Positions 11,105 through 62,195 of a stretch of DNA of 64,000 nucleotides are shown here, piece after piece. Origin of the DNA: a bacterium. GTDB lineage: Bacteria > CAIWAD01. How positions within the stretch are numbered: position 1 is the stretch's first letter; each line of letters begins with the position of its first letter. Both the position numbers and the translations under genes were made by a program. Location of the stretch: NCBI GenBank assembly GCA_030685015.1, contig JAUXWS010000043.1:26844-90843 (forward strand), written 5' to 3'. The notes under the pieces are model-generated. The model saw only the letters and a program-made list of their open reading frames with translations. It ran no database searches and was not told the DNA's origin.

Positions 11105-11177
<73 letters not shown>

Positions 11178-11247: not shown

Positions 11248-11928
11248 TCAATCCAGGGGGGCACGGCGGAAGCCGATCCGGTCGAAGGGATTGACCAGAC
11301 TGGTGAGGATGTTCAACCAGTGGGAGTTGATCCGCTTCAGATAGCGGACATAGAGGGCCAGCGCCACCTGGGTGAAGGGGGGCAGGTCCACCGGCTGCCG
11401 GCCGGACACCAGGATGTTGGTGATGCGGTCACAGGCCGGGTTGACCCAGTTGAGGTCCGCGATGAGGGTGGCGGCCGCCTTCTCGTCATTCTGCTGGAAG
11501 CACTGGCGCCCCTGCGGCAGCAGACGCTCAATCACCTGCTCCTCGATGCGGCACAGCTCCGTCTCGAACTCCCCGGCTTGCAGGCGCGGCTCGTGCTCCC
11601 GCGCCAGCTCAACGATGTTCTTGGCATAGTCGCCCACCCGCTCCACGTCGATGATGATGCTGATCAGGACGAGGGCCGGATAGACTTCCTCATTGCCCAT
11701 CACCGTCAAGTGGGTGAAGACCTTGCGCCGCACCTCCGATTCGTAGCGGTTCACCACCTGGTCCATCTTGCTGATGTCAAGCTCCGCCGGGGCGTGCTCC
11801 GTCTCGCGCAGGGCCTGCCGCGCGACCCGGACCATCGTCTCGGCCTGGAGCAGCATGGTGTGGGTGTCCTTGAGGGCCTGATCGAGCAGGCTTTCCTTGT
11901 TGAAGAGGGACAGGAAGCCCTTCAGCAT
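11248..11928 (-). CDS. phoU: PhoU-domain phosphate-transport regulatory protein.
   Basis: Two PhoU-like helical repeats with the conserved (D/E)xxxD pattern (IIDVERVGDYAKNI). It sits directly downstream of a Na/Pi cotransporter gene. Confidence 0.7.
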   Translation of the reverse strand: MLKGFLSLFNKESLLDQALKDTHTMLLQAETMVRVARQALRETEHAPAELDISKMDQVVNRYESEVRRKVFTHLTVMGNEEVYPALVLISIIIDVERVGDYAKNIVELAREHEPRLQAGEFETELCRIEEQVIERLLPQGRQCFQQNDEKAAATLIADLNWVNPACDRITNILVSGRQPVDLPPFTQVALALYVRYLKRINSHWLNILTSLVNPFDRIGFRRAPLD

Positions 11929-11938
11929 GGGGGATCTC

Positions 11939-21811: not shown

Positions 21812-23193
21812 TTGTCCACCACCATGGCGCTCATCTCGGCGCTGGTGACCAGCTGCCCGTCCACGTAGGCCTTGCCCTCCATCAGGCACATGCCGCGCCT
21901 CTGCTTGAGCATGGTCAACTCCATCACCAGCTGGTCGCCCGGACGCACCGGCTTGCGGAAGCGCACTTTGTCCAGGCCGGTGAAGTAGACCACCTTCTCC
22001 TCCGGCCGGTCGTAGCTGTTGAGGAGGAGGATGCCCCCCGTCTGTCCCATCGCCTCCACAATGAGGACGCCGGGCATGATGGGATGCCCCGGGAAATGGC
22101 CGGGGAAAAAGGGCTCGTTGATGGTCACGCATTTGATGCCCCGCACGAACTCGCCGGGCTTCAACTCGGTGATGCGGTCCACCAGCAGGAAGGGATAGCG
22201 GTGGGGCAGGATGCGCTCGATGGCGGCGGCGTCGAAGACCTCCTCGCTCAGGCGCTGCTGGTACTCCTTCTGCAGGCTCTTGCGCACGGCCTCCTGCTTC
22301 AGCTGGCGGACGAGGGCGACATGGGCCGTGTGACCGCCGCGGGCGACGAGGACATGGGCCTTGAGGGGCTGGCCCAGCAGGCAGAGGTCGCCGGCCAGAT
22401 CCACCACCTTGTGCCGCACCGGTTCGTTGGGCCAGTGCGGCTCCTGATCGCCCAGGATGCGCCGGCCGGCGGCCAGCCGCTCGCGATCGATTGTCACGGA
22501 GAAATGCTGCTCCAGGCTCCTGAGGTCCTGGTCGGCCACGTCAAGAAAGACAAGGGCGGCGTCCAGGCTGCCGCCCTGGATGAGGCCGCGGCGCTGCAGC
22601 TCCAACAGCTCGCTGGCGAAGCAGAAGGTGCGCGCCGGGGCGAACTCCTGGATGAATTCGCTCCAGCCGTACATGCTGGTGTACTGGGTGCCCAGGGCCG
22701 GGTTGGCGTAGTCCACCATGTAAGTGACGCGGAACTCCTCGGAGGGCACGACCACGATGTCGATGCCGCTGTCGTCATGGTAGACCACCGTGCGATCCAC
22801 GCTGAGGAAATCGCGCGGCTCCTCCAGCTCGCGGATGCCGGCCTGCTGCAGCACGGCGATGAAGGCCGCCGCCGAGCCGTCGAGAATGGGCGGCTCCGGC
22901 CCGTCCATCTCGATCAGGCAGTTGTCGATGCCCAGCCCGGCCAGGGCCGCCAGCAGATGCTCGGCGGTGTGGACACGCACGCCGTCCACCGCCAGGACCG
23001 TGCCGCGGTCGGTGCTCACCACGTGTTCGATGGTGGCCGGGATGTCCACGACGCGCTCCCCCTCCCGCCGGCGGAAGACCAGCCCGTGTCCGGCCGGGGC
23101 GGGCAGGAAGGTGACCGTGCAAGGGGCGCCCGTATGCAGGCCCAGCCCCGCAATGGTGGCGGAGTCCTCGATGCTTCGCTGGTTGAGGTTCAT
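21808..23193 (-). CDS. lpxC/fabZ: Bifunctional UDP-3-O-acyl-GlcNAc deacetylase / (3R)-hydroxyacyl-ACP dehydratase (LpxC-FabZ fusion).
   Basis: The N-terminal ~300 aa carry LpxC motifs ([37 protein letters not shown]). The C-terminal ~150 aa form a FabZ hotdog ([12 protein letters not shown]...[16 protein letters not shown]). The fusion is characteristic of Bacteroidota and related FCB lineages. Confidence 0.9.
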
Positions 23194-24946: not shown

Positions 24947-27256
24947 CTAGAACTCCCGTCCGAACTGGAAGTGGAACTCCCATTTGCCCTGGCGCAAGCC
25001 GGTGCTGGAACTGACGCGGTCGAAGCCATACGCGTAATCCAGGCCGATGAGGCCGATCATGGGCATGTGCAGGCGCAGGCCCAGGCCCGCGCTCTTGTCC
25101 AGATCGCTCAGGGATGAACTCTTCAGGTTCTTCCAGACCTTGCCCGCTTCGCCGAAGACCAGGCCGTAGACCGTGGGGTTGGGGATGAGCTGGAAGCGGA
25201 TCTCCGTTCCCGCCTTGAACTTGATGCGACCGCCGTCCTCGCCCGTGCCCACGCTGCGGTCGCTGTAGCCGCGCAAAGGGGTGCCCAGGCTAAGGCCGCT
25301 GCCGCCCATGAAGAAGCGCTTGATCCAGGGCACCTCGTCCCGGGCGCCCAGCCCGTCCACGATGCCCGCCTCCAGGCTGTTGTAGTGGATGAACTTGCCC
25401 AGGAAAGGACTGTAACTGCGGGCCTCCAGGGTGTAGCGCTGGAAATCGCGCTCCCCCCCCAGGTAGCCGCCACCGATCTCGCTGTCCAGGCGCACGGTGG
25501 AGCCGTTCTGAGGGAACTCCGGGTGGTCGCGGCTGTCCCGCACGAGGGAGACGGACAAGGTGGAGGCCAGCTCGGGATCGTCCTCGTAGATGCCGCGGCG
25601 GTTCAGCTCCGCGCGGGAGCTGCTGACAAAGTTGGTGTAGACCGTCTCCTCCAGGCGGTAGGTGCTGGAGACGCGGAAGTAGTTGTCCGGCCAGGTGAGG
25701 CGCTTGCCCAGCGTCACGCTGCCGCCGCGGCTCTTCTGGTCGAAATCCCAGTTGTAGGTGCGGGTCCGCTGGATGTCGAAGACGCGGAAGCCGGCGAGGA
25801 TGGGCCGATCGAAGAGAAAGGGCTCCTGGAACTCCAGGTTGAGGCTGCGGTAGCTGCGCGCGAACTGCCAGTCGAAGGAGAGGGTCTGGCCGTTGCCCAT
25901 CAAGTTGTTGAGGGAGAACCCGATGGAGCCGACCAGCTTGTCACGCTCGCTGTAGCCGGCGCTCATCATGATCTGGTCGGTGTTCTTCTCCTTGACCTCC
26001 ACCGTCAAGTTGACCTGGTCGGCGCTGGCGATGTCCACATCGGGGTTGACCGCCTCGAAGTAGTTGAGGATGGTCAGATCGCGCAAGCTGCGGCGCAGCT
26101 TGCCCACGTCGAAGGTGTCGCCCGGACGCAGGTGCATCTCGCGCCGAAGGACCTTCTCCTTGGTCTTGTCATTGCCGGCGAAATCCACGCGCTTGACCGA
26201 GAAGACGTTGTTCTCGGTGATCTCGAAGCGGATGTCGATGACGGCCTCGTCCCGGGGCAGCTCCACGGGGCGGACCTGGGCTTGGATGTAGCCCCGGTTG
26301 TAGTAGAGGTCGTGCAAGCCCTCCTGCACGCTCTGCTCCAGCTTCTTGCGGGAATAGGGATCCCCCGGCCGCAGCGAGATCTGGCGCTGCAGCTCCTCCA
26401 CCGTGAAGACCGTGTTCCCCGCCCAGCTGATCTCTCCCACCTCGTAAAGGCGGCCCTCATAGAGGTGGACCAGCACCTTGAGGTCCCGGCTCTGCTCGTC
26501 CACCCAGACACTGTCGGACAGGACGCGGGCATCCCGGTAGCCCAGGTTGTGCAGGTAGGCGACCAGCAGGCCCTTGTCCACCTCGAAGGCCTCGCGGTCG
26601 AACTTGCCGCTGCGGAAGATCATGCGGGGGCGGGTCTTCTTCATGCGGCGGATCAGCTTGGCATCGGACACCTGTTCGTTGCCCTGGATGATCACCTGGT
26701 CGATGCGGATGCGCTGGCCTTCCTTGACCACCACGTGGAGATCGCCCTGCCCCTCTTCGATGTTGCGCACCGCCACCTCCACCTCGGCCAGGCGGAAGCC
26801 TTCCTTCTCATACAGATCCTGCAGGGTGCGCCGCGCTTTGAACATCTCCAGCTCGCCCACGGGCAGGCCGACGGTGACCACCCCCTTGAGGGCGTCGCGC
26901 AGGCGGGTCTTGCCCAGCTTGTCGTTGCCCACGATCTCCAGGCTGCGCAGCCGGGGCAGCTCCTCCACCTGGATTTCCAGGTAGATGCCCTCGCTCAGCT
27001 CGCGGGCCAGCAGCACCTCGACGGAGCTGAAGCGCTTGAGGCTCCACAGCTGGCGGATGGCTTGCTGCACATCCTCCCCGCGCAGGGCGGAGCCCACGCG
27101 CAAGCCGCTGTTGATGCGGATGAGTTGTTCGTCCGTGGTGCTGTTGCCGGTGACGGTGAGGCCCAGCAGGGTGGGTCCGCCGGCTTCGCCGCGGGCCTGG
27201 GCGAAGGCGCCGGCGGCCGCGCAGAGGAGCCAGAACAGAAGGGTGAGTTGGCGCAT
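24947..27256 (-). CDS. bamA: Outer-membrane protein assembly factor BamA.
   Basis: Signal peptide, multiple POTRA-like repeats (VxxI.I.GN...), and a C-terminal Omp85 beta-barrel ending ...FHFQFGREF (C-terminal aromatic). Trimmed to MRQLTLLFWLL. Confidence 0.9.
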   Translation of the reverse strand: MRQLTLLFWLLCAAAGAFAQARGEAGGPTLLGLTVTGNSTTDEQLIRINSGLRVGSALRGEDVQQAIRQLWSLKRFSSVEVLLARELSEGIYLEIQVEELPRLRSLEIVGNDKLGKTRLRDALKGVVTVGLPVGELEMFKARRTLQDLYEKEGFRLAEVEVAVRNIEEGQGDLHVVVKEGQRIRIDQVIIQGNEQVSDAKLIRRMKKTRPRMIFRSGKFDREAFEVDKGLLVAYLHNLGYRDARVLSDSVWVDEQSRDLKVLVHLYEGRLYEVGEISWAGNTVFTVEELQRQISLRPGDPYSRKKLEQSVQEGLHDLYYNRGYIQAQVRPVELPRDEAVIDIRFEITENNVFSVKRVDFAGNDKTKEKVLRREMHLRPGDTFDVGKLRRSLRDLTILNYFEAVNPDVDIASADQVNLTVEVKEKNTDQIMMSAGYSERDKLVGSIGFSLNNLMGNGQTLSFDWQFARSYRSLNLEFQEPFLFDRPILAGFRVFDIQRTRTYNWDFDQKSRGGSVTLGKRLTWPDNYFRVSSTYRLEETVYTNFVSSSRAELNRRGIYEDDPELASTLSVSLVRDSRDHPEFPQNGSTVRLDSEIGGGYLGGERDFQRYTLEARSYSPFLGKFIHYNSLEAGIVDGLGARDEVPWIKRFFMGGSGLSLGTPLRGYSDRSVGTGEDGGRIKFKAGTEIRFQLIPNPTVYGLVFGEAGKVWKNLKSSSLSDLDKSAGLGLRLHMPMIGLIGLDYAYGFDRVSSSTGLRQGKWEFHFQFGREF

Positions 27257-27342
27257 CCGGTGCGGGGAGTCCTGTCTTGTTCTATCGTGGGTAGGAAGGT
27301 AGAGAGAAGGCCCGGCAAAACCAATGCGGGCCGGGTCGGGCT

Positions 27343-28353
27343 TCAGGCGGGAAGCGGGCCGCCGGGATGGTCCCACTGGTCCAACAGGTCCAGGAGGGCG
27401 GCCTCGGCGGGCAGGCGGCCTGAAGCCACCTCCTCCTCCAGGCGGCGGCGCAGGTCGCTCATGGGGCGGGGTCCGAAGACGCGCTCGAGCACGGCCTCCT
27501 CGGTCATCAGGCGGAACCAGCGGCGCTCCTGCTCCAGACGCAGGGCGTGCAGGCCCCCGTCGGCGGAACGGGCCGCCCGGCAGGCCAGCACCTGCCGCCA
27601 GACCTCGTCCAGGCCCTCGCCGCTGGCGGCGCTGCAGGCCAGGACCTGCCGCGTCCAGGCGGCCGGGCCCTCCCCCATGGACAAATGCAGGGCGACGGCC
27701 ATGTCGGCCTGGGTGCGCAGGGCGGCGGGGCGCGTGTCGCCGTCGGCCTTGTTGACGGCAATGATGTCGGCCTGCTCCATCACCCCTCGTTTGATCCCCT
27801 GCAGGTCGTCACCGGAGGAGGGCAGCAGGAGCAGCAGGAAAACGTCCACCAGGTCGCGCACCGCCACCTCGCTTTGGCCCACGCCCACTGTCTCCACCAG
27901 CACCACGTCAAAGCCGGCCGCCTCGCAGAGCCGCAGGCTTTCGCGCGTGCGCCGCGCCACGCCGCCCAGGCTGCCGCCGGAGGGGCTGGGCCGGATGAAG
28001 GCCTCCTCCCGCGCCGCCAGCTTCGCCATGCGGGTCTTGTCCCCCAGGATGCTGCCGCCGGAGACGCGGCTGGAGGGATCCACCGCGAGGACGGCCACCC
28101 GGTGCCCCGCCTCGATCAGCCGGCAGCCCAGGGCGTCGATGAGAGTGCTCTTGCCGGCGCCGGGCGGGCCGGAGATGCCCAGGCGCAGGCTGCCACCCGT
28201 GTGGGGAGCCAGGCGGCGGAGCAGCTCGGCGGCACGGCGGGCGTCCTCCGGGCGGCGGCTCTCGGCCAGGGTGATGGCGCGGGCCAGCAGGCTGCGATCG
28301 CCGGAGAGGATGCCGGCGGCGAGGGTCGCCAGATCGGGTGGCCGGCTGATCAT
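27343..28353 (-). CDS. meaB: Methylmalonyl-CoA mutase-associated GTPase MeaB (ArgK).
   Basis: P-loop GPPGAGKST; G-protein switch motifs ([15 protein letters not shown]). The stop overlaps the mutB start. Confidence 0.85.
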
Positions 28354-49435: not shown

Positions 49436-50343
49436 GCGAAGGCCGGTTCCTCGCCCTCGTCGGAGGAGTCCTCCCCCGCGCCGGCCGGCGCCAGGTCCGG
49501 CGGGACGTTCAATAGATGACAGAAGAGGCGATGCAGGGTCGCCTTCAGGTCGGAGCGCGGCACCACCTGGTCGACAAAGCCGTGCTCCAGCAGGAATTCG
49601 GCCCGCTGGAAGCCGGCCGGCAGGTCCTCGCCAATGGTCTGCTTGATCACGCGCGGCCCGGCGAAGCCGATGAGGGCTCCCGGTTCGGCGATGATGACGT
49701 CTCCCAGCATGGCGAAGGAAGCGGTCGTGCCGCCGGTGGTGGGATCGGTCAAGAGGCTGATGAAGGGCAGCCGCGCCTCGGCCAGCCGGGTGAGCAGGGC
49801 GGAGGTCTTGGCCATCTGCATGAGGGATAGGGTCCCCTCCTGCATGCGCATGCCGCCCGAAGCGGAGAGGATGAGCAGGGGCGTCCGCCGCTCCACGGCA
49901 CGCCGGATGGCGATGGCCATCTTCTCGCCCACCACGCTGCCCACGGATCCGCCGAAATGGGAGAAATCCATCAGGGCGCCCGTCACGGCCAGTCCGTGGA
50001 TGCGGCCGGTGCCTGTCAGCACGGCGTCGTTGAGGCCGGTCTTGCGCGTGGCGGCGGCCAGGCGCCCGGCATAGGGCTCCGTGTCCACGAAGGACAGGAA
50101 GTCGCGCGAGCGGAGGTCCTGCCCGAACTCCTCGAAGGATCCGGTGTCGAACAGGATGTCCCGGTAGCGCCGGCTGTTGATGCGCATGTGGTGGCGGCAC
50201 TGGGGGCAGACTTCCAGGTTCTTCTCCAGCTCCTTGCGGTATAGGATCTGGCCGCAACTGGTGCATTTGATCCACAGTCCGTCGGGCACGGTACTGGCGA
50301 CCGCCTTGCGTGGCCCTTCGGGGCTGCGTTTGAACCAACTCAT
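49432..50343 (-). CDS. accD: Acetyl-CoA carboxylase carboxyltransferase beta subunit.
   Basis: N-terminal C4 zinc ribbon (CTSCGQ...CPQCRHH). Carboxyltransferase domain with a GGSMG-like motif. Confidence 0.9.
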   Translation of the reverse strand: MSWFKRSPEGPRKAVASTVPDGLWIKCTSCGQILYRKELEKNLEVCPQCRHHMRINSRRYRDILFDTGSFEEFGQDLRSRDFLSFVDTEPYAGRLAAATRKTGLNDAVLTGTGRIHGLAVTGALMDFSHFGGSVGSVVGEKMAIAIRRAVERRTPLLILSASGGMRMQEGTLSLMQMAKTSALLTRLAEARLPFISLLTDPTTGGTTASFAMLGDVIIAEPGALIGFAGPRVIKQTIGEDLPAGFQRAEFLLEHGFVDQVVPRSDLKATLHRLFCHLLNVPPDLAPAGAGEDSSDEGEEPAFA

Positions 50344-50398
50344 GTGCGGATTCCTGCCTGTTTGACGCCGGACAAAAGTAAGGAACGGCGGGGTGGGG

Positions 50399-50872
50399 TC
50401 AACCGCCGCTTGAGTGGCCACCTGCCTCCTCGGCCGGCTCCAGATCCAGCCGGAAGATGAGGGCGTCCTCGCCGTCGCCATAATAGCGGGGCCTTCGCCC
50501 CGTGGCGCGGAAGCCGCAACCCTGGTACAGGCGGATCGCCGCCTCGTTCGAGACGCGCACCTCCAGCCAGACGACACGGGCCCGCCGCCGCGCGGCCCGG
50601 TCCAGGAAGGCGCCCAGCAGTTGTTTCCCCCATCCTTCCCCCCGATGGACGGGATGGACGGCGATGGAGTGCAACTCCGCCTCGTCGGCCGCCACCCGAC
50701 CCAGCGCCGCACCCTGCAGGCGGTCGTCCTGGCAGAGGCCGAGGGCGAGCACACCGCCACTCGCCAGGGCCGAGGCAAACAGGCCGGCCGGCCAGGGATC
50801 GTCGGCGAAGCAGATCTTCTCCAGCGCGGCCAGGGCCGCCACGTGGCGATCGTCCAGGTCGATCAGCTCCAC
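50399..50872 (-). CDS. rimI: GNAT-family N-acetyltransferase (ribosomal-protein-alanine acetyltransferase RimI-like).
   Basis: Acetyl-CoA-binding motif HRGEGWGKQLL. About 157 aa. GTG start assumed at 50872; an alternative ATG at 50893 would overlap folP. Confidence 0.65.
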   Translation of the reverse strand: MELIDLDDRHVAALAALEKICFADDPWPAGLFASALASGGVLALGLCQDDRLQGAALGRVAADEAELHSIAVHPVHRGEGWGKQLLGAFLDRAARRRARVVWLEVRVSNEAAIRLYQGCGFRATGRRPRYYGDGEDALIFRLDLEPAEEAGGHSSGG

Positions 50873-51750
50873 GAGGCACCGTCCTCCAGCCACCGCCAGA
50901 CCCGCAGGGCCTGGACCGTCTCCGCCACGTCATGGACGCGCAGGATGCGCGCGCCTCGCCTCGCCCCCCAGATCGCCGCCGCCAGGGAGCCGCCCAACCG
51001 CCCGCCGGGGGGCGCGGGGGGCTGTCCTTGCTCCTCCTCCAGGGCCGCGACGAAGCTCTTGCGCGAGACGCCCAACAGCATGGCCTGCCCGGGCAGGGGC
51101 GTCCATCCGGCCAGCACTTCGCGAATGTGGCCGAGGCGCTTGCCAAAGCCGATGCCCGGATCCACCACGATGCGGTCGCGGGGCAGGCCCAGGGCGGTCA
51201 GCGCCCGGCTGCGCTCCACCAGGAACCCGCGCACCTCGGCCGCCGCGTCCTGATAGTGGGGTGCCACCTGCATGGTGGCCGGCGTGCCCTGCATGTGCAT
51301 GACGACGGTGGGTACGCGGCAGCGGGCCACCAGGGGCCAGAGGGCGGGATCCCGCCGACCGGCGCTGATGTCGTTGACGAGGACGGCCCCGGCCTCCACC
51401 GCGGCGCCGGCCAGGGCGGCGCGCTGGGTGTCCACGCTGAGCCAGGCGATCCCATCCCGGGCAAGCGCCCTGAGCAGGGGCAACACCCGGCCCATCTCCT
51501 CGTCCTCATCCACCGGCTGGGCGCCGGGCCGGGTCGATTCGCCGCCCAGGTCCAGCAGGTCGGCCCCCGCCGCCACCATCCGCCGGGCCGCAGCCAGGGC
51601 GCGTCCGAACTCGTGCGGACGACCCGTATCAACGAGCTGTCCCCCGTCGCTGAAGGAATCAGGCGTCAGGTTGAGCACGCCCATGACGAGGGGGGGGCGC
51701 GTCGCATCGTGTAGACGGGCCAGGAAAGCGTTGACGGCGGCCCGGTTCAT
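50863..51750 (-). CDS. folP: Dihydropteroate synthase.
   Basis: Pterin-binding TIM barrel with VMGVLNLTPDSFSDGG, DLGGESTRPG and GVSRKSF motifs. Confidence 0.9.
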   Translation of the reverse strand: MNRAAVNAFLARLHDATRPPLVMGVLNLTPDSFSDGGQLVDTGRPHEFGRALAAARRMVAAGADLLDLGGESTRPGAQPVDEDEEMGRVLPLLRALARDGIAWLSVDTQRAALAGAAVEAGAVLVNDISAGRRDPALWPLVARCRVPTVVMHMQGTPATMQVAPHYQDAAAEVRGFLVERSRALTALGLPRDRIVVDPGIGFGKRLGHIREVLAGWTPLPGQAMLLGVSRKSFVAALEEEQGQPPAPPGGRLGGSLAAAIWGARRGARILRVHDVAETVQALRVWRWLEDGASWS

Positions 51751-53276
51751 GGCGAAGGGGCTTCGTCCGGCGCCCTCATGGCCAGGGCCTGCTCCAGCAG
51801 GCGGCGGGACTGGGCCAGATCCACGGGATCGCCGCCCAGGGCCAGGCGCTTTTCCAGGTACTGGACAGCCACTTCCGGCCGTCCCTGCCGCAGATGACTG
51901 AGTCCCAGCAGGTGCAGCACGGTGGGGGGGCTGCCCAGGGCGACCGCCCGCTCCAGGGCCGGCACCGCCTCCGCCCAGTGGTTCAGGATGATGTGCAACT
52001 GGCCCAGGTTCAGCCAGGCGCGGGGATCATCGGGCCGGACCGCCAGGCTGGCCTGATAGGAGGCGAGCGCCTGCTCATGATCCATCAGTTCATAGGCTAG
52101 GTTCCCCCGCAGCAGGTGCAGCTCCGCGTCGCGGGGGTAGGCGGTCAGCGCCGCCTCGGCCAGGGCCACCGCCCGCAGCCCCTGGCGGTGGTTCATCCAG
52201 TGGTTGGCCTGGACGAGCACGGCGGGCCGGAAGGCCGGCAGGAGGTCCAGGCAGCGGGAGCGGGCCGTGGCCTTGTCGGGATAGCCGAAGGCGGCCAGGC
52301 CCTCCTTGGCCATGTGGGCCAACTGCCAGTAGATGAGCGGATGGCCCGGCTCGCGGCTGAGGGCATTGGCCAGGGCCTGGCGCGCCTGCTCCCACTCCCC
52401 GGTGCGGGCGAACCAGGCGCTTGCCAGCAGCCAGGGCTCGGCGCCCAGTTCCGTCCTCTCCGCTGCCCAGGCCAGCGCCCGGTTGACCCCCTCGGCCACT
52501 TCGGGCAGGGGACCGGCCAGGGCCAGCTGCAGGCTGCTGCGCCGCAGATCCTCCCAGGGTGGCAGGGGGCCGGTCGGCAGGTCCAGCCAGGCCTGGGCGG
52601 AATCGGGCACGGGTTGGTAGAGGATCCGCCAGGAGGCATCCCAGGGTCGGCGCTCCAGGACGGCCCCCTCGACATGGCGGGCCAGCAGCCGGTCCAGGGC
52701 CGCCGCCAGTGAATCCGGGCGGTCCGGGTGGGGACAGGGCTCGCCGCCCTCCCGCGTGCAAACCCGCCAATCCCACCGCCAAAGGACCAGGTGGGGGCGA
52801 TCCTGCGCCCCCACTTGGGACACGAGCAGGCGGACATCCAGGGCCGCCATCAAGCGGGCCGCCTCCGCCTCGCTCGCGGGCTGCGTGCGGCCCGTCTCGA
52901 GCAGATGCTGCACGATGCGCAGCGGCAGGGGCTTGCCCTGCCAGCGCAGGGTTCCCGACGCCGCGGGTGGACGCAGGTTCTGTTCGGCGCGGGCGAAGAC
53001 GGCCTCGCCGACGGGGCTGTCCCTCTCCTCCGGCGGCCAAAGAAGCAGACCCGCGGGGGGCGGCGCACTGAGCTGCAGGCGCAACAGGACGTGGATGCTG
53101 ACGATGAGCAGCCAACCGGCGGCCAGCCACGGCAGGGGGCTGCGATCGCGGAAGACGCCGATGGGCCGGATGACCACCTGCACCAGGACGCCCCAGAGCA
53201 GCAGGGCGCCCACCAGCGGCAGCACGCCCCCGGGCAGGTCGCCGCCGGCCCAGTTCCAGATCCGCAGGAGCTTCAT
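51747..53276 (-). CDS. Membrane-anchored TPR-repeat protein.
   Basis: Two N-terminal hydrophobic segments, then multiple TPR-like repeats (WLNLGQLHIILNHWAEAVPALERAVAL...). Its stop overlaps the folP ATG; its ATG overlaps the upstream gene stop. Confidence 0.6.
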   Translation of the reverse strand: MKLLRIWNWAGGDLPGGVLPLVGALLLWGVLVQVVIRPIGVFRDRSPLPWLAAGWLLIVSIHVLLRLQLSAPPPAGLLLWPPEERDSPVGEAVFARAEQNLRPPAASGTLRWQGKPLPLRIVQHLLETGRTQPASEAEAARLMAALDVRLLVSQVGAQDRPHLVLWRWDWRVCTREGGEPCPHPDRPDSLAAALDRLLARHVEGAVLERRPWDASWRILYQPVPDSAQAWLDLPTGPLPPWEDLRRSSLQLALAGPLPEVAEGVNRALAWAAERTELGAEPWLLASAWFARTGEWEQARQALANALSREPGHPLIYWQLAHMAKEGLAAFGYPDKATARSRCLDLLPAFRPAVLVQANHWMNHRQGLRAVALAEAALTAYPRDAELHLLRGNLAYELMDHEQALASYQASLAVRPDDPRAWLNLGQLHIILNHWAEAVPALERAVALGSPPTVLHLLGLSHLRQGRPEVAVQYLEKRLALGGDPVDLAQSRRLLEQALAMRAPDEAPSP

Positions 53277-54676
53277 GTCCCGATCCTCAGTTCCACCCGA
53301 TAGAGCAGGGCGCGGCTACGCGACGCCTCGGTGGTCTGCACCTGGACCAGGTTGCGCCCTGTCTGCAGCAGGCTGGAGACCGGCCAGGCCCGCGCCTGCT
53401 CCGAGTCGGCCAGGGGCAACTCGCGGGCCAGGACGGTGCCGTTGATCAGCACGGTCAGGGCGGCGCCCCGCGTCAGGACCAGAGGGTAGCGTTGGCCGGA
53501 ATCCGCGGCGACCAGCACCAGCTCGGCGCTCCACTCCGGGTTGACTTTCATGGGCAGGTCGAAGGCGAGACGCAGGGCCTGGGATCCGCCGGGACGACGG
53601 TCCATGAAGGCGCGGCCCAGCACAAGCGCCGATCCCGCGGCCCGGGGTCCGCTGGCCGCGTCGGCGCGGAAGTCCTCGCCCGGCATGACATAGCCTGTCG
53701 CCTCCAGGCGTATGCCGGATGAGCCCGCGGGGCGCCACTCCAAGCTCAGCGGCGCGTGGTGGGCAAGCTCCATGCTGAGGGGCGCCGTGGCGGTGAGAGA
53801 AAGCGGGGGCGGGGCGAGCAGGCCGGTCAGACGGGGGAAGCGCAGGACAAGCGGCAGCTCGAACCGATGGATCAGGCAGCGGCCGCGTCCCAGCAGTTCG
53901 TCCCCCCGGATGATCTCGGCCTCGGGCGGTTCGATCATCAGCTCGACGAAGTGCTCGCGGGGGGGCAGGGCCAGGCGGTGCATGCCGCCCCGCGCCAGCA
54001 GAGTGTCCAGCAGGACGCGGCCGCGCAGGTCGACTTGAAGGCGGCGGGGTCCGGGATCGAGCGCACGCGCGGCGCCTTGGGGCAGGACGCGGCCGTCGAT
54101 CTTCAGGCGGAAGGCGGCATCCCAGCGCGACCAGGCCAGGGTGTGGCCTTGCTCGACCAGGTCGCTGTCCGCGGGATGAAAAGGCGCCGCGCCCAACTCC
54201 AACAGGCTGCCCAACCCCACGGGGCGGGGGGTCGGGATCGTCGCGGCGGCCGCGGAAGGAGGTGCGCCGCCGACTTGCTGCACGGGGGTGGGCTGGGCCA
54301 GCTCGACCAGCTTGAAACTGAGGCTTCGTGTTCCCGCGGCCAGGTCCTTCCGCTCGAGGCGGTGGGAGATCGGTTCGGCCTCATGGCCGGCCAGCCGCAC
54401 CTGGATGAGGGCCGGACGATGGGCGGGCAGGCTCAGGCTTCCCGGCGTGAGGCCGTGCCCGGCCCGCAGGTTGACCAGGATCTCCGCGCCGGCCGGTTCG
54501 CTCAGCACCGTCACCTGGCAGCTGCCCGCCTGCTCCCGCCGACTCCAGAGCAAGGTGGCCAACAGGAGCAGAATCGCCCCCAGCAGGCTGGCCCAGAGCA
54601 GATGGCGCCGCCGGCCGGGCTCTTCATCGTTCATCTGAAAGCCCTTCCCGGCATGAAAGACAGGCTTGTTGCTCAT
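53273..54676 (-). CDS. Membrane-anchored hypothetical protein with an N-terminal PEGA-like domain.
   Basis: N-terminal transmembrane helix (LLWASLLGAILLLLATLLW), followed by CQVTVLSEPAGAEILVNLRAGHGLTP...LIQVRLAGHEAEP (PEGA-like). The remainder is beta-rich with no recognised domain. Confidence 0.45.
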   Translation of the reverse strand: MSNKPVFHAGKGFQMNDEEPGRRRHLLWASLLGAILLLLATLLWSRREQAGSCQVTVLSEPAGAEILVNLRAGHGLTPGSLSLPAHRPALIQVRLAGHEAEPISHRLERKDLAAGTRSLSFKLVELAQPTPVQQVGGAPPSAAAATIPTPRPVGLGSLLELGAAPFHPADSDLVEQGHTLAWSRWDAAFRLKIDGRVLPQGAARALDPGPRRLQVDLRGRVLLDTLLARGGMHRLALPPREHFVELMIEPPEAEIIRGDELLGRGRCLIHRFELPLVLRFPRLTGLLAPPPLSLTATAPLSMELAHHAPLSLEWRPAGSSGIRLEATGYVMPGEDFRADAASGPRAAGSALVLGRAFMDRRPGGSQALRLAFDLPMKVNPEWSAELVLVAADSGQRYPLVLTRGAALTVLINGTVLARELPLADSEQARAWPVSSLLQTGRNLVQVQTTEASRSRALLYRVELRIGT

Positions 54677-55281
54677 CGAAGCGGGCGCAAGCGGATGGAC
54701 AGGTCCACGCTGCCGCGCGGCTCCAGCTGGATCACCTGGAAGGGTTCGTCGGCGGGCAGATAGCCAGGCAGGCGCAATTCCAAAAGGTGCTCGCCCGGAC
54801 TCAGCTCCAGACGGGCGTCCGTCACCAATCCTGTGTCCTGGCCGTCCACGAAGATGCGCGCCCCGGGCACGTTGCTTAGCACAACCACCGTTCCCCGGTC
54901 GTCCAGCAGATACCAGGCGCCCAATCCAACGGCCAGGACGATGAGGGCCACCCAGCCGGCCAGCCGCAGCCAGACACGGCGCCGGGCCTCCTCCAGGTTC
55001 TCCACGTGCTCTTCATAATCGAAGTAGCCCTCGCGCGCCAGGATCTGCTTGCGGGTGAGCCACTCCGTGTCGCCGTTCTCGTTGACGTATTCGAAGTAGT
55101 CCGGCGAGTTCTGGTAATAGGAGCGGGCCTCTTCGGCCATGATGCGGCGTCTGGCCTGCTCCTGCAGGAACAGCTCCTCGGCCTCCCGGCGGGCCTCCTC
55201 CTCGTCGCGGCGCCGTTGATCCGCCTCCGCGATCTGCCGTCGCACTTCCTCGCGGATGAGGGCTTCCTGTCGTGGATCCAT
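54673..55281 (-). CDS. PEGA-domain membrane protein with a highly charged coiled-coil N-terminus.
   Basis: Arg/Glu-rich helix (EADQRRRDEEEARREAEELFLQEQARRR), a transmembrane segment (LAGWVALIVLAVGLGAW), and a C-terminal PEGA domain (VVVLSNVPGARIFVDGQDTGLVTDARLELSPGEHLLELRLPGY). Trimmed to Met-41. Confidence 0.55.
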   Translation of the reverse strand: MDPRQEALIREEVRRQIAEADQRRRDEEEARREAEELFLQEQARRRIMAEEARSYYQNSPDYFEYVNENGDTEWLTRKQILAREGYFDYEEHVENLEEARRRVWLRLAGWVALIVLAVGLGAWYLLDDRGTVVVLSNVPGARIFVDGQDTGLVTDARLELSPGEHLLELRLPGYLPADEPFQVIQLEPRGSVDLSIRLRPLR

Positions 55282-55445
55282 GCGCTCCGCCGCAAATGAA
55301 TGGATGACAGCGGCTTCCGGGTCTTGGCCGAGCTGGACCCTGGTTGGCTTCGCCACCTGCCCCCGCCCACATCGCCTGGCGTCCGCCGGTCGGACTGGCA
55401 AGGGGGGAACTCCCGGCCATGGGTCGAGCAGCTTCCCAGGTCTGG

Positions 55446-57430
<1,985 letters not shown>

Positions 57431-57431
<1 letters not shown>

Positions 57432-57991
57432 CAGGCCTTCCGCCCGCTGTCCCGGCCGTCCACGCGCACGTAGATCTCCGGCAGATTGCGCCAGTTCTGG
57501 CGGAAATCCAGGCCGAAGCCGATGACGAACTCAGGGCCGATCTCAAAGCCGACATAATCCAGGTCGAAGGAGAGGCGGCTGTTGTCGGGCTTGTGCAGCA
57601 ACGTGGCGAAGCGGACGGAGGCGGGGGCCTGCAGGGAGAACTTCTGCCTGAGGAAACTGACGGACAAACCGCTGTCCACGATATCCTCCACCACCAGGAT
57701 GTGGCGCCCCCCCACCAGGCTGTCGTAGTCCTTCTTCATCTTGACCTCGCCGGAGCTGGACAGCTCGTCGCCGTAGCTGGAGATCTTGATGAAGTCCACC
57801 TCGCAGGGCACGTCGATCGCCCGCATGAGGTCGGCTCCGAAGACGAAACCGCCATTGAGGACGATCATGAGGATCGGGTTCAAGCCCTTGTAATCCTCCG
57901 AGATCCGCCGACCGAGGACGCGGACGCGCTCCTCGATCTGCGACCGGCTGATCAGGACATCGAAGTTCATCTTTTCGATGGTCAGTGGCAT
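57431..57991 (-). CDS. hpt: Hypoxanthine phosphoribosyltransferase.
   Basis: PRPP-binding motif [13 protein letters not shown]. The tilS-hpt-ftsH order is the widely conserved one. Trimmed to MPLTIEKM. Confidence 0.9.
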
Positions 57992-59322
57992 GGCATCATC
58001 CAGATTGGCTCTACGTTTCCCACAGCATTCCCAGGCCAGGCGCGGGCGACGCCCGGACACCAGACGACCTCGCCCCCCTGCTCCACAACCAGCTGCAGGC
58101 CCTTCTGCGCCGGGGTATAACCCAGTATTCCCATCAGGTCGGCCAGGAGTGGCCTGCGATCCGGCCCCTGACGGATGCGGTCACCGGCCCGCCAACGGCG
58201 CAGGCGCACGGCCGAAGGTCCGCCCATTGCCGCGGGGTGCCAGAGCAGCGCCACCTCCGCGGGTGGCGCACCCCATCCCACTCTCCAGACGCCGGCCCTT
58301 AGCTCTTGGCCGGGTCGCAACTCCTGGTCAAAGGGCCTGACAGCCTGCATGACCAGCCAGGCGCGAGGTCCACCGATCTCCAGCCAGGCCGACCCCAGCC
58401 GGATCCGACTCCCTCGCCGGCCGCTTTGCAGTGCCGCCACGGCGCGGTCCAGGTGGGTTGTCGAGGGATCGCGCCCCCACAGTCCAAGCCGCCTGCCCAG
58501 TTGCCTGAGCGTCTCCCGCACCACCGCTCCATGATATGATAGAATGGCTTCCCGTTCAAGCGAGCTGCCGCACTCGGTGGGCTGAAGATCAAGTTTGTCA
58601 AGCAGTTCCATGACTTTTTGCTTCCGCTCCCGGGACATCGCGGCGACCTCTCGGCCCACCTCGTCCAGCAGGCGCTCCACCTCGGAGCCTCCCCGCCGAG
58701 CCAGCGGCCCCAGGATGTGGTGGCGCAGGTGGTTCCGCTCATAATCCGGCTCGCGGTTGCTGGCATCCTCGCGCCAGGGCAAGCCCAGGCGGCGGCAACG
58801 ATCCCGAATCCAGTCCGGCTCCAATGTGATCAGGGGACGGATCCAGCGCCCCGTCCGCGCCTCCATCCCGGCCGCAGCCCAAGGAGACTTCCCCTTCAGC
58901 AGCGTGGCCAGCACCGATTCCCGCTGGTCACCCGCCTGGTGGCCGAGCAGGATCACGCCATCCGCTCCGGCCAGCTCCTCCAGGCAGGCCCGCCGGCAAC
59001 GGCGGGCGGCGTCCTGCAGGTTGCCCGCCGGCGGTCGGGTCCAACGTCGGTCCTCCACCACCAGGGGGAGTCGCAGGCCAGCCGCCAGGGCGCGCACGTG
59101 GGCCTCGTCGCGGTCAGCCGCCGAGCCTCGCAGGCCGTAGTTGACATGGGCGACCACCAGGCGGGCCGGCCAACAAGAGGCCATGACCGCCGCCTGGAAC
59201 AGCAGATAGACGGAGTCGGCACCGCCGGAGACGGCGACCACCCAGTGACGTTCTGAGGGAAGAAGCAACTGGCGCCAGCACTGGGCGACGGGTGGATCGG
59301 CCTCCAGGAGGGTCGCGGTCAT
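57982..59322 (-). CDS. tilS: tRNA(Ile)-lysidine synthetase.
   Basis: N-terminal PP-loop SGGADS. Long C-terminal substrate-binding region. Confidence 0.85.
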   Translation of the reverse strand: MTATLLEADPPVAQCWRQLLLPSERHWVVAVSGGADSVYLLFQAAVMASCWPARLVVAHVNYGLRGSAADRDEAHVRALAAGLRLPLVVEDRRWTRPPAGNLQDAARRCRRACLEELAGADGVILLGHQAGDQRESVLATLLKGKSPWAAAGMEARTGRWIRPLITLEPDWIRDRCRRLGLPWREDASNREPDYERNHLRHHILGPLARRGGSEVERLLDEVGREVAAMSRERKQKVMELLDKLDLQPTECGSSLEREAILSYHGAVVRETLRQLGRRLGLWGRDPSTTHLDRAVAALQSGRRGSRIRLGSAWLEIGGPRAWLVMQAVRPFDQELRPGQELRAGVWRVGWGAPPAEVALLWHPAAMGGPSAVRLRRWRAGDRIRQGPDRRPLLADLMGILGYTPAQKGLQLVVEQGGEVVWCPGVARAWPGNAVGNVEPIWMMPCH

Positions 59323-59951
59323 TCTTCCAGCTGAGGAACCTGGATCAGGTGATGGGTGGTCTGTCCGGGCTGCAAGGCCACGTCCGACTCCGAATAGATG
59401 GTGCGGTTGCGGTAGCGCACCTCCAGCAGGTAGGTGTAGGCGGAATCCGGCTCCGCCTCCTTGGCCAGGGGCAGGTTGAGGAAGACGAAGCGGCCCTGCA
59501 TGTCTGTCTTGGTGCTGCGGAACTGGATGGCGGGGTTGTTGGCGCCAGAGCGGCGCAGGATCAACTGGACACCGCTGATGGGGTGGCGGTCGCTCTCGCT
59601 CACCACCTCACCCGAGATGTGGGACACGGCGGAACGCACGGAATCGCGGCGGTCCTGGCCCTCCTCCCGATCCGTGTCGAGCTGGCGACGGCGCTCCGGG
59701 CCGATGTAGTCATTGCCGCCGCGACGCTGCGCCATGGGGCCTGCGCCCGACCCGGCCGGCCGCGGACGGCCATTGGCTGGCACCTGGTCGCCCAGCTGGA
59801 CCTTGAGGTTCATGATGGCGTCCTCGAACTCCCCAGGGACAAGAACACCCTTGCCCTCCAGCAGGAAGACGAGGGCATTGATCCTGCGGGACACGTCAGA
59901 GGCGGCGGACAGCGGCGCGGGATTGGCCGCTTTGCGGTGATTGCGCATCAA
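59319..59951 (-). CDS. Hypothetical protein with a C-terminal carboxypeptidase-regulatory-like (CarbopepD_reg) beta-sandwich.
   Basis: ISGVQLILRR...TDMQGRFVFLNLP resembles the CarbopepD_reg fold. No signal peptide is evident. The stop overlaps the tilS ATG. Confidence 0.4.
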   Translation of the reverse strand: MMRNHRKAANPAPLSAASDVSRRINALVFLLEGKGVLVPGEFEDAIMNLKVQLGDQVPANGRPRPAGSGAGPMAQRRGGNDYIGPERRRQLDTDREEGQDRRDSVRSAVSHISGEVVSESDRHPISGVQLILRRSGANNPAIQFRSTKTDMQGRFVFLNLPLAKEAEPDSAYTYLLEVRYRNRTIYSESDVALQPGQTTHHLIQVPQLEE

Positions 59952-60070
59952 TTGTTCCGTTTTTCCTACCTGAGGGGCGGGACCCGTGTGATCTCGGGTC
60001 GCCGATGGTCCGGGTCATGTGGATTTGGGATGGTTCAGCGATACCAGCAAGCTCACCAGCCAGGCACTGA

Positions 60071-60144
60071 TAGCAGTGCAGGGACTCGAACCCCGGACAC
60101 GCGGATTATGATTCCGCTGCTCTAACCAGCTGAGCTACACTGCC
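60071..60144 (-). tRNA. tRNA with a CAU anticodon, elongator type. It could be tRNA-Met or tRNA-Ile2 (the lysidine substrate).
   Basis: Reverse complement GGCAGTGTAGCTCAGCTGGTTAGAGCAGCGGAATCATAATCCGCG...GGTTCGAGTCCC...CACTGCTA forms a cloverleaf. Anticodon loop AUCAUAA (U33, A37). No three-GC initiator signature. Confidence 0.75.
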
Positions 60145-60153
60145 AGTTTGATA

Positions 60154-60226
60154 TAGCGGGGACAGGATTCGAACCTGTGACCTTTGGGTTATGAGCCCAA
60201 CGAGCTGCCAACTGCTCCACCCCGCA
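60154..60226 (-). tRNA. Initiator tRNA-fMet (CAU).
   Basis: Reverse complement TGCGGGGTGGAGCAG...GCTCGTTGGGCTCATAACCCAAAGG...GGTTCGAATCC...CCCCGCTA. Three consecutive G-C pairs close the anticodon stem, and a 1:72 mismatch (U·U) is present. Both are hallmarks of bacterial initiator tRNA. CCA is not encoded. Confidence 0.8.
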
Positions 60227-60263
60227 ATGAGGACACGCAATATAGCTGGAAGCGGAGGCCATG

Positions 60264-62195
60264 TCAAGGCTGCAGCCGGGCCTTCACCCATTCCTCCAGC
60301 CCGCCGGCCAACACCAGTTCCTGCGCGGCCACGCCAATGGGAAAGAGCGGATAGGAGCGTCCCTCTGTCTCCAGCAGGCTGCGCCGCACATCCAGTCTTG
60401 CTTGCCAGCCCGTTCTCAACGTGGGGGCGGACGGAGTGGGAAAGGCCTGGCGAAGCGCCTCCACCAGTTCCGGTGCTTCCAGCGCCAGGAAGCCGTTGTT
60501 GAGGGCGTTGCGCTTGTAGGTTTCGCTGAAGCTGCCGGCCAGCACCAGACGAATGCCGAAATGCTTTAGGGCCGTGGCCGCCTGTTCGCGACTGGATCCA
60601 GTGCCGAAATTGTAGCCGCCCACCAGCAGGTCGCCGGGGCGCGCCAACCGGCGGAACCGTGGATCATGGTTCTCCATCACCACGGCCACCTGGTCGGCCG
60701 GACCCATGTCGTCCTTGTAAGTCCACTTGCCGGCGTAGATGCCGTCCGTGTTGAGATTGTCCACATCGCAGAAGATCAACTCCCCTGCCAGGGCCTCCGG
60801 GAATCCCGGCAGGATGCGCACCGCGGCGATGGTCGGCCAGGGTCGCTCCGGGCGATGCAGGGACACGCGCGGCAGAAGGGCGGGCAGGTCAGTGGCGGCG
60901 CAGATGACGCCGGCGCGGGCGGATGCGGCCACCACCGCTGGCGAGGCCAGGTAGGCCTTCGAGTCCGCGTGTCCCATCCGCCCCTTGAAATTGCGGTTGG
61001 TGGCGGAAATGCCGGTCTCCCCCTCCCCCAGAAGCCCCACGCCCAAGCCGATGCAGGGTCCGCATCCGGGTGGCAGGACGCGCGCGCCCGCCGCGACCAG
61101 ATCCTGCCAATCCCCTGTTTGCTCCGCCGCCGCCTGCACCTGCGAGGAAGCGGCCGAGAGATAGAACTCCACCCCGTCCGCCACCCGGCCGCCACGCAGG
61201 ACGGCGGCGGCCTGGGCCAGGTCGCCGGCCCGGCTGTTGACACAAGAGACGAGGTAGGCCTTCTGCACGGGTATGCACTCCAGCGCCAGCTCGGAGGCCG
61301 GCCGGGCCCGCTTGATGGCATTGGGACCGGCCACCCAGGGCGAGATGGTGGCGAGATCGATCTCCAGCTCGACGGCGTAGGTGGCGTCCGCATCGGCGGC
61401 GGGAGGATTCCGCCGCAGCTCGCGCAGCCGGTAGGCGTTCAGGCGCGGATGCCCCGGACGGGCGGCGGCCAGTGCCTCGAGCCAGGCCATCAGCCGCTCG
61501 TCCACCGGAAAAACCCCGGCCAGGGCGCCCCACTCGGTGGTCATGTTGGCCACAGCCAGGCGATCCTCGATGCCAAGGGTGGCCACGCCGGGGCCGGCGA
61601 ACTCCACCGCATGATTCAATACCTCATCGCGGGAGAACTCGCTGCACAAGGTCAAGATGAGATCCTTGCCCGTCACGCCGGGTCGAAGGGCGCCCCGCAG
61701 CGTGACGCGGGCGACCGGGGGAAGCTGCCACCAGGTGCGGCCGGTGGCCCAGATGGCCGCCGCATCCGTCCGCACCACCGGCGTGCCCAGACACCCCACC
61801 CCGCCGTACATGTTGGAATGGCTGTCGCTGGCCACGACCAGGGTGCCGGGCCAGGCGAAGCCCTCCTCGATCATGATCTGGTGGCCGATGCCCCGACCGG
61901 CCGGGAAAAACATGACTCCCATGTCGCGGGCAAAGGTCTCGATGCGCGCATACTTGGCCAGGTTGGCCTCGCTGGTGTCCTGCACGTTGTGGTCCAGGGC
62001 GAACACCGGCTGGCCGGGATCCGCCATGCGCACGGCGCCGATGGACCTGAACTTGGGCATGACCGCGCCGGTGTTGTCGTGCGTCATGACATGGGCGGGC
62101 CGGATGGAAAGCAGGTCGCCGGACTGGACCCACTGGCCGGGATCCAGATCCACGGCGTGGGCCTGGGTCAGTCTTTCCACCAGGTTCTGTGGCAT
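60264..62195 (-). CDS. Aconitase-superfamily hydro-lyase with fused large (LeuC-like) and small (LeuD-like swivel) domains; homoaconitase / 3-isopropylmalate dehydratase-like.
   Basis: LeuC/aconitase motifs GIGHQIMIEE, ASDSHSNMYG, CGPCIG and SATNRNFKGRMG. The C-terminal swivel domain carries GYNFGTGSSREQAATAL. Trimmed to MPQNLVERL. The exact substrate cannot be assigned from sequence. Confidence 0.75.
   Translation of the reverse strand: MPQNLVERLTQAHAVDLDPGQWVQSGDLLSIRPAHVMTHDNTGAVMPKFRSIGAVRMADPGQPVFALDHNVQDTSEANLAKYARIETFARDMGVMFFPAGRGIGHQIMIEEGFAWPGTLVVASDSHSNMYGGVGCLGTPVVRTDAAAIWATGRTWWQLPPVARVTLRGALRPGVTGKDLILTLCSEFSRDEVLNHAVEFAGPGVATLGIEDRLAVANMTTEWGALAGVFPVDERLMAWLEALAAARPGHPRLNAYRLRELRRNPPAADADATYAVELEIDLATISPWVAGPNAIKRARPASELALECIPVQKAYLVSCVNSRAGDLAQAAAVLRGGRVADGVEFYLSAASSQVQAAAEQTGDWQDLVAAGARVLPPGCGPCIGLGVGLLGEGETGISATNRNFKGRMGHADSKAYLASPAVVAASARAGVICAATDLPALLPRVSLHRPERPWPTIAAVRILPGFPEALAGELIFCDVDNLNTDGIYAGKWTYKDDMGPADQVAVVMENHDPRFRRLARPGDLLVGGYNFGTGSSREQAATALKHFGIRLVLAGSFSETYKRNALNNGFLALEAPELVEALRQAFPTPSAPTLRTGWQARLDVRRSLLETEGRSYPLFPIGVAAQELVLAGGLEEWVKARLQP

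Follow-up and report, generated by a model that had tools for sequence, protein, structure and literature searches.

Membrane-anchored PEGA, PEGA-like and TPR proteins encoded between ftsH and folP in a Delongbacteria-like lineage

A Gene Trio Between ftsH and folP

FtsH is the universal membrane-protein quality-control protease, and its known helpers, HflK/C, LapB, and YqgP, decide its targets, among them the enzyme of the committed step of lipopolysaccharide synthesis. Here we describe three adjacent genes, designated A, B, and C, which lie between ftsH and folP on a 64,000-nucleotide (nt) stretch of DNA (hereafter the window; positions 26,844 to 90,843 of contig JAUXWS010000043.1, assembly GCA_030685015.1, from a bacterium of the GTDB lineage CAIWAD01). 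Coordinates are positions in the window unless another locus is named, and the genes run along the minus strand in the order ftsH, A (202 amino acids, aa), B (467 aa), C (509 aa), and folP (Table 1). A preliminary description of the sequence had placed three membrane-anchored proteins here, and both the gene order and hydropathy bear this out; the 4-nt overlaps of stop and start codons that it listed are each read as ATGA, at 54673-54676 (A/B), 53273-53276 (B/C), and 51747-51750 (C/folP).

To assess the conservation of this arrangement, we examined 12 related genomic contexts, comprising the window (identical in sequence to the 90-kb JGI metagenome contig L001), the loci L007, L009, L010, and L014 to L018, and the contig gene tables of P0005, P0008, and P0033. 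The genes ftsH, A, B, and C are contiguous in all of them, folP is directly next in 11, and nowhere among them does ftsH adjoin folP without the trio. The direct succession of ftsH and folP, said in the preliminary description to be common elsewhere, is the reference arrangement seen in E. coli K-12 (rlmE-ftsH-folP-glmM). The one context in which folP is not directly next is L015, a complete Delongbacteria chromosome, where C and folP are separated by a CDGSH/Fer4_19 gene; this is the only insertion seen, and it neither parts ftsH from the trio nor splits the trio. The inserted gene (L015 11059-11724) shares 4 nt with the end of C, and its 221-aa product combines a Fer4_19 domain with two CDGSH iron-sulfur domains.

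The trio consists of genuine genes. Their GC content at third (GC3, 0.81-0.89) and second (GC2, 0.43-0.52) codon positions follows the signature of the neighboring genes, base composition is uniform across the region, and independent gene calling on L001 gave the same genes. In L016, a metagenome-assembled genome, the public gene call misses C and instead has a 500-aa "Pterin_bind" protein in another frame (10976-12478); an intact 498-aa C open reading frame (ORF) is present at 10110-11606, with a 4-nt overlap with the stop of B. In the window, the shared strand, the stop/start overlaps, and the lack of a terminator between the genes are the marks of a translationally coupled operon, and this sequence evidence supports the cotranslation of A, B, and C as one unit.

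Table 1. Features of the ftsH-folP region and the upstream genes of the same run (positions in the window; TM, transmembrane; AF2, AlphaFold 2).
Feature	Position	Strand	Description or evidence
A, 202 aa, bitopic membrane protein	54673-55281	-	cytoplasmic N-terminal domain aa 1-95, TM ~96-126, periplasmic PEGA aa 130-199
A, cytoplasmic N-terminal domain	54997-55281	-	charged helix aa 3-58, beta-hairpin and short helix aa 62-84, acidic GYFDYEEHVE
B, 467 aa, bitopic membrane protein with large periplasmic beta-rich ectodomain	53273-54676	-	TM aa 26-44 (hydropathy); AF2 model
B, N-terminal peptide M-x-x-K-P-V-[YF]-x-A-G-x-G-F	54635-54676	-	cytoplasmic; K4 P5 V6 A9 G10 G12 F13 invariant in 8 sequences
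B, PEGA-type beta-sandwich, aa 52-125	54302-54523	-	AF2 strands at pLDDT 84-90; profile searches; hhalign
B, C-terminal jelly roll (assignment inferred), aa ~301-467	53276-53776	-	resembles carbohydrate-binding modules
C, 509 aa	51747-53276	-	WNxxGGxxPxG motif, TM hairpin aa 18-36 and 47-65, no-family region aa ~67-279, TPRs aa ~280-490
ftsH, 661 aa	55446-57431	-	Pfam Peptidase_M41 225 bits, AAA 160 bits; NCBIfam FtsH_fam 843 bits (cut-off 600)
ftsH/A spacer, 164 nt	55282-55445	-	sequence read; holds upstream extension of the A frame to TTG 55401
folP, dihydropteroate synthase, 295 aa	50863-51750	-	Pterin_bind 232 bits; NCBIfam DHPS 265 bits (cut-off 162.6)
hpt	57431-57991	-	coordinates from the L001 gene call; upstream of ftsH in the run
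tilS	57982-59322	-	upstream part of the same gene run
CarboxypepD_reg-like gene, 210 aa	59319-59951	-	C-terminal domain below threshold, 29.3 vs 32.3 bits

Domain Architecture and Membrane Topology

Protein A carries a bona fide PEGA domain (PF08308), as had been proposed, with a score of 36.7 bits over aa 130-199 against a gathering threshold of 20.8. Hydropathy gives a single TM segment (aa 108-126), and in the AlphaFold model, with a predicted local distance difference test score (pLDDT) of 89, the PEGA sandwich follows a TM helix whose end is near residue 126. Residues preceding the TM segment are basic and those following it acidic, so that the N-terminus of A is placed in the cytoplasm. 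This N-terminal part is modeled as a long helix (aa 3-58), a beta-hairpin (62-76), a short helix (77-84), and a less ordered GYFDYEEHVE segment. The long Arg/Glu coiled coil suggested for A in the preliminary description was not borne out: the helix is 50% charged, contains only 20% LIVMFWY, has no hydrophobic heptad register, and includes 25 opposite-charge pairs at i/i+3-4 spacing, and these properties are better matched by a charged single alpha-helix of ~8 nm. The most conserved part of A extends from the hairpin to the acidic stretch (block conservation 0.77-0.87), with E73, W74, L75, T76, I80, R83, E84, G85, F87, D88, Y89, E90, E91, and V93 invariant in 28 A sequences. No Pfam family matches the N-terminal 100 residues of A even at E = 5, and an A profile searched against PDB sequences produced only chance-level matches.

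The ORF of A is read from the ATG at 55281, which has a GGAG 4 nt upstream and agrees with the start of its orthologs, most of which begin "MDPxQEA." Although the frame extends upstream to a TTG at 55401, a longer, TTG-started A (242 aa) was rejected, as orthologs either start at "MDP" or have unrelated short extensions; the stretch from the ATG up to the TTG is probably not translated.

Protein B combines an N-terminal TM anchor with a large, mostly beta-structured ectodomain. Its AF2 model has an overall pLDDT of 79.6, rising to 84-95 over aa 52-125 and 178-467; between these two stretches lies a disordered Pro/Ala linker (128-174). The short N-terminal peptide that precedes the anchor (Table 1) has a kindred motif, YYxGxGFE, in the distant orthologs P0068 and P0075. 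The PEGA-like character proposed for the N-terminal domain holds by fold and profile, although the sequence of B itself falls below the Pfam PEGA threshold (12.7 vs 20.8 bits, E 0.13, aa 54-85 only), so that of the domain assignments tested against Pfam those of A and C pass and that of B fails. Some B orthologs do have a precomputed PF08308 match, and the B-family profile matches, over aa 47-130, hundreds of multi-PEGA proteins such as P0050, which has 10 PEGA repeats (464 bits on PF08308). A profile search with B and its orthologs gave ~2650 matches at E <= 1e-3, many of them unrelated multi-PEGA-repeat proteins. Alignment by hhalign of the B profile with a family that has clear PEGA domains covered the whole ectodomain with 99.7% probability (E 2.9e-27). 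Since the profile matches, the hhalign result, and the modeled sandwich agree, "PEGA-like" is a correct term for B, and homology of its N-terminal domain to PEGA is supported.

Beyond the linker, the model of B contains ~290 residues of confident beta structure. Its C-terminal domain is predicted to have a beta-jelly-roll fold resembling carbohydrate-binding modules (CBMs) of the CBM6/35/36 type, which we infer from domain size to correspond to the last third of the protein. By sequence this domain does not belong to a CBM family: there is no Pfam CBM match, and identity to structural matches is ~10%. On the basis of the modeled fold, the jelly roll could bind an envelope glycan. For residues 176-310 of B, a Pfam search up to E = 5 yields no family.

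Protein C was predicted in the preliminary description to be a tetratricopeptide repeat (TPR) protein, and several Pfam models agree over aa ~280-484: TPR_2 (57.9 bits vs 27, four stretches), TPR_1 (50.4 vs 27.8), TPR_14 (48.4 vs 23.5), and TPR_16 (47.6 vs 32.7). Matches of C to PDB profiles are consensus TPR proteins. Near its N-terminus W7, N8, G11, G12, P15, and G17 are conserved, and two hydrophobic helices (aa 18-36 and 47-65, by hydropathy) are connected through a basic loop that is itself conserved. This loop has a net charge of +2 to +3 in nine orthologs, with the N-terminal tail and the flank after the second helix about neutral, and by the positive-inside rule C is probably N-out/C-out with a periplasmic TPR domain, a topology to which we assign moderate confidence. 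The region between the hairpin and the repeats (aa 70-280) matches no Pfam family in four orthologs, even at E = 5, and none of the three cysteines of C is invariant in ortholog alignments. No NCBIfam equivalog was found for any trio protein; A and B have no NCBIfam match at all, and C has only sub-threshold matches to generic TPR families.

Distribution and Divergence

The A, B, and C families are confined to a Delongbacteria-like lineage within the Fibrobacterota-Chlorobiota-Bacteroidota (FCB) group. B is represented by 8 clusters at 90% identity in a word-indexed search and by about a dozen full-length ortholog clusters in an exhaustive profile search, and A by 30 clusters, all of 202-230 aa. 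Source names of these clusters are "bacterium," "Candidatus Delongbacteria," and, in one case, a "Calditrichaeota" metagenome-assembled genome; a metagenome scan with distant B orthologs found nothing. Trio orthologs retain the conserved motifs down to 29-34% identity. In the most distant lineage (L017/L018), FtsH is 63% identical and B 29% over 284 residues, and B thus diverges far faster than FtsH over the same divergence.

These distant loci keep the whole block from the CarboxypepD_reg-like gene and tilS-hpt-ftsH through A-B-C to folP-rimI, with different outer genes on both sides. Across the contexts, genes outside the block differ, with GcpE in place of aconitase upstream and Tricorn or GT2/PMT_2 genes in place of accD-surE-guaA downstream. 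The upstream order CarboxypepD_reg-like-tilS-hpt is the same in all related loci with upstream context, and in all related loci, L017 and L018 included, a 187-249-aa equivalent of the CarboxypepD_reg-like gene heads the tilS-hpt-ftsH run. The Tricorn-type gene (L017 12463-15795; L018 12463-15774) follows rimI, whose end it overlaps by 4 nt in L017 and 11 nt in L018, and encodes a protease of ~1100 aa, another protease in the gene run.

The junctions are less constant than the order of the genes. A 4-nt overlap joins B and C in 10 of the 12 contexts, and A and B overlap in nine. At the ftsH/A junction there is a 4-nt overlap in L014, L015, and L016 and a 1-nt overlap in the P0008 contig, with gaps of 164 nt in the window and 183 nt in L017. 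L017 and L018 have no overlaps at the trio junctions, only gaps of 18-183 nt.

Literature on the trio was sought and none was found, and queries pairing "PEGA domain" with FtsH or with rhomboid gave nothing relevant. What is undescribed here is not the kinds of domain, which are known, but the families themselves, the conserved elements on their cytoplasmic side, and their fixed position beside ftsH.

The Surrounding Gene Run

The trio is part of an uninterrupted minus-strand run at 45-60 kb, which begins with two tRNA(CAT) genes and continues through the 210-aa CarboxypepD_reg-like gene, tilS, hpt, ftsH, A, B, C, folP, rimI, accD, surE, guaA, and glmS. Genes overlap or abut at the CarboxypepD_reg-like gene/tilS, tilS/hpt, hpt/ftsH, folP/rimI, accD/surE, and surE/guaA junctions as well, and throughout the run most junctions show an overlap of 1, 4, or 10 nt; the overlaps are therefore a property of a compact, GC-rich operon and do not single out the trio. 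The proposal that the overlaps make the trio one translated unit with folP accordingly stands for A, B, and C, but the 4-nt overlap of the folP start with the C stop marks no special link to folP, being a general operon feature that is absent in L017/L018.

No terminator-like site was found in 50300-60400, and the ftsH/A spacer contains neither a terminator-like nor a promoter-like site. The sole strong promoter-like site, the near-consensus TTGACA-17-TATATT at 60267-60239, is upstream of the tRNA genes. We propose that the trio is expressed within a long tilS-hpt-ftsH-A-B-C-folP-rimI transcription unit.

The two head-to-tail tRNA genes with anticodon CAT (60069-60227, minus strand), which this promoter-like site precedes, open the operon that holds tilS. 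TilS modifies tRNA-Ile2(CAU), which tRNA finders label as Met, and one of the two may thus be the tRNA on which TilS acts, its gene lying beside that of the enzyme. The product of the CarboxypepD_reg-like gene is a fourth lineage-specific beta-sandwich protein of the same operon; it has no obvious TM segment, and its gene overlaps the start of tilS by 4 nt.

B-like Proteins Beside Rhomboid Protease Genes

A family with a TM-PEGA-PEGA-jelly-roll architecture (P0079, P0083, P0092, P0100, P0103, and P0123) resembles B in its N-terminal TM anchor, its C-terminal jelly roll, and homology over the whole ectodomain. It differs from B in having two clear PEGA domains and no invariant KPVYxAGxGF peptide, and from the trio in having no A- or C-like genes alongside; its neighbors are a rhomboid gene and bshC/bshB rather than ftsH. 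At three loci the B-like gene is followed by the rhomboid gene after 3 intervening nt (L019 6995-9391, L021 6950-9364, and L022 20-1630), and at a fourth (L023 1771-4259, 43% identity) a coenzyme A-binding gene lies between them. In these bacteria, which represent another FCB-type lineage, the genes upstream of the B-like gene are the divergently oriented bacillithiol genes bshC and bshB. As read from gene order, this pairing is suggestive of a second, independent link between the fold family of B and a membrane protease.

Comparison with Known FtsH Partners and PEGA Proteins

HflK and HflC are bitopic inner-membrane proteins, N-in and with large periplasmic domains, that are thought to surround FtsH and modulate the access of membrane substrates; presumably hflKC is not adjacent to ftsH in E. 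coli. The trio likewise pairs short cytoplasmic parts with a bulky periplasmic part, but its folds are PEGA/transthyretin-like, CBM-like jelly roll, and TPR. None of A, B, and C matches SPFH/Band_7 at E <= 1, and they are not HflK/HflC family members.

TPR proteins are established as protease adaptors, with LapB and NlpI serving FtsH and Prc, respectively. LapB (YciM) is a TM-anchored adaptor of FtsH for LpxC degradation, and its TPRs are cytoplasmic. Similarly, C is anchored in the membrane and carries TPRs, and its gene is separated from ftsH by two others in an organism with LpxC. Unlike LapB, C has two TM helices rather than one, a ~200-residue non-TPR region, no rubredoxin-type C-terminal domain, and a TPR domain that is more likely periplasmic. 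No LapB model appears among the NCBIfam matches of C at E <= 1, and this search, together with the TM count and the lack of conserved cysteines, led us to reject C as a LapB ortholog.

One documented substrate adaptor of FtsH is YqgP, a rhomboid whose TPR domain is extracellular and whose N-terminal domain is cytosolic (PMC7231995). The trio resembles YqgP/GluP of B. subtilis and ActH of S. aureus in combining a cytosolic N-terminal domain (in A), extracytoplasmic domains, and TPRs at an ftsH locus, and relatives of B adjoin rhomboid genes. It differs in that there is no rhomboid core and no sequence similarity, and in that the functions would be spread over three polypeptides. A, B, and C have no match to Rhomboid (PF01694), and C, with its two TM segments, does not belong to the rhomboid-TPR proteins.

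Classical PEGA proteins are multi-repeat proteins that are secreted or of the S-layer type. With its bona fide PEGA domain in A and a divergent one in B, the trio shares their transthyretin-like/carboxypeptidase-regulatory fold, but A and B each cross the inner membrane once, keep conserved parts in the cytoplasm, and are encoded in a housekeeping operon.

Possible Function of the Trio

Judging from the encoded sequences, the trio probably forms a cell-envelope complex, and we tentatively favor the reading that this complex is an inner-membrane, mostly periplasmic accessory or adaptor of FtsH. In such a scheme, the ancient ftsH-folP junction would have been opened, early in the history of the lineage, by the arrival of a lineage-specific A-B-C cassette. 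Its products would be inner-membrane proteins with their bulk facing the periplasm, to which A would contribute a PEGA sandwich, B a PEGA-type domain, further beta domains, and the CBM-like jelly roll, and C probably its helical/TPR domain. The cytoplasmic face would be made of the ~95-residue domain of A, the invariant 13-residue N-terminus of B, and the basic loop of C. The three proteins would assemble as one periplasm-facing complex that serves FtsH as an accessory or substrate adaptor, so that FtsH proteolysis would respond to the state of the envelope, by analogy with HflK/C, LapB, or YqgP but with different parts.

Several observations are consistent with a link to FtsH. The trio is never apart from ftsH in the 12 contexts, despite changed outer flanks, and A, B, and C are all membrane-anchored, as is FtsH, which has two TM segments (aa 19-37 and 132-150) by hydropathy. 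Moreover, the most conserved segments of the trio include cytoplasmic ones, as would be expected of proteins with specific partners on the same side of the membrane as FtsH. The overlap of ftsH with A in L014, L015, L016, and the P0008 contig, the rhomboid pairing of B-like genes, and the precedents of YqgP and LapB speak in the same direction.

Other observations weigh against such a link. Functionally unrelated housekeeping genes share the operon (tilS, hpt, ftsH, folP, rimI, accD, surE, guaA, and glmS), which makes adjacency weak evidence, and its conservation may reflect only shared transcription. The accessory module for membrane quality control or envelope biogenesis that the preliminary description suggested from the location beside FtsH is accordingly no more than a possible role. 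Overlapping junctions are the rule along the whole run and vanish in L017/L018, and ftsH and A are 164 nt apart in the window. The trio has no sequence or fold similarity to known FtsH partners (SPFH proteins, the LapB model, the rhomboid core). The acidic C-terminal tail of FtsH has no lineage-wide conserved motif that a TPR could read; a TPR-docking peptide on FtsH was considered and dropped, as "EPG[LV]A" is common only to the closest relatives. The proposed topology of C follows from the positive-inside rule only. Finally, the association with rhomboids is seen in one B-like subfamily only, and at the single locus obtained for another subfamily, that of P0092 (L025, a 2.2-kb contig), there is no rhomboid gene in the ~700 nt visible downstream.

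An alternative of nearly equal probability is that the trio is an FtsH-independent, inner-membrane-anchored periplasmic scaffold carried along in a housekeeping operon with strong, constitutive expression, in which case the PEGA and CBM-like domains would bind peptidoglycan, lipopolysaccharide, or exopolysaccharide and the TPR domain would recruit partners. Surface and envelope proteins are the typical setting for PEGA, transthyretin-like, and CBM-like folds as well as for TPRs, the organism is diderm, with BamA and an LpxC-FabZ fusion encoded in the window, and the operon mixes unrelated functions. The trio also evolves faster than FtsH, as is usual for envelope proteins, and the A/B and B/C junctions overlap more consistently than ftsH/A. 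However, a scaffold leaves unexplained why the strongest conservation in A is in its cytoplasmic domain, why the N-terminal peptide of B is invariant, and why a B-like subfamily is paired with rhomboids, and in none of the 12 contexts is the trio located away from ftsH.

It is improbable that one or more of the trio proteins are instead substrates of FtsH, with the conserved cytoplasmic tails as initiation sites for dislocation and degradation, and with co-expression that would set the stoichiometry of a regulated envelope factor. FtsH starts degrading membrane proteins from cytoplasmic tails of roughly at least 20 residues; A and B are both predicted to be N-in, with tails of ~95 and ~22-25 residues, and would be co-transcribed with ftsH. 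FtsH degrons are usually not sequence-specific, yet the tails of A and B are invariant at many positions, which suggests a specific binding function rather than a degron. That the ORFs are not genes, or form a recent functionless island, is very improbable, for although B and parts of A and C lack a curated family, their codon-position GC matches that of their neighbors in a region of uniform composition, A and B have confident AlphaFold models, conserved orthologs are present in every related genome sampled, and none of A, B, and C matches an anti-phage defense model in PADLOC; a recent island or defense system was rejected on the uniform composition and the absence of PADLOC matches.

Returning to the FtsH-linked complex, a broader form of this reading, which we consider doubtful, is that B-type proteins are an unrecognized class of periplasm-facing partners of membrane proteases, acting with FtsH (together with A and C) in this lineage and with rhomboids in the other FCB lineage. 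In both they would read the state of an envelope glycan and gate or target membrane and intramembrane proteolysis, a function like that of HflKC, LapB, or YqgP served by wholly different folds. If the trio does work with FtsH, the three-protein module would represent a new route linking the periplasm and envelope to cytoplasmic proteolysis throughout an uncultivated lineage, and the pairing of B-like proteins with rhomboids would extend the idea to intramembrane proteases. If it is an FtsH-independent scaffold, its members would be ordinary lineage-specific hypothetical envelope proteins, of value mainly for three unannotated families, namely the cytoplasmic domain of A, B, and the N-terminal half of C.

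Other Features of the Window

Elsewhere in the window, the minus strand encodes a fused LpxC-FabZ protein of 461 aa (21808-23193) and a BamA/Omp85 protein with POTRA repeats (24947-27376), which together indicate a diderm organism with lipid A synthesis. LpxC is a classical FtsH substrate in E. coli. Domains of the kinds found in the operon also occur in a 780-aa protein with an N-terminal CarboxypepD_reg-like domain (7873-10215, minus strand) and in a 928-aa TPR protein (2240-5026, plus strand).

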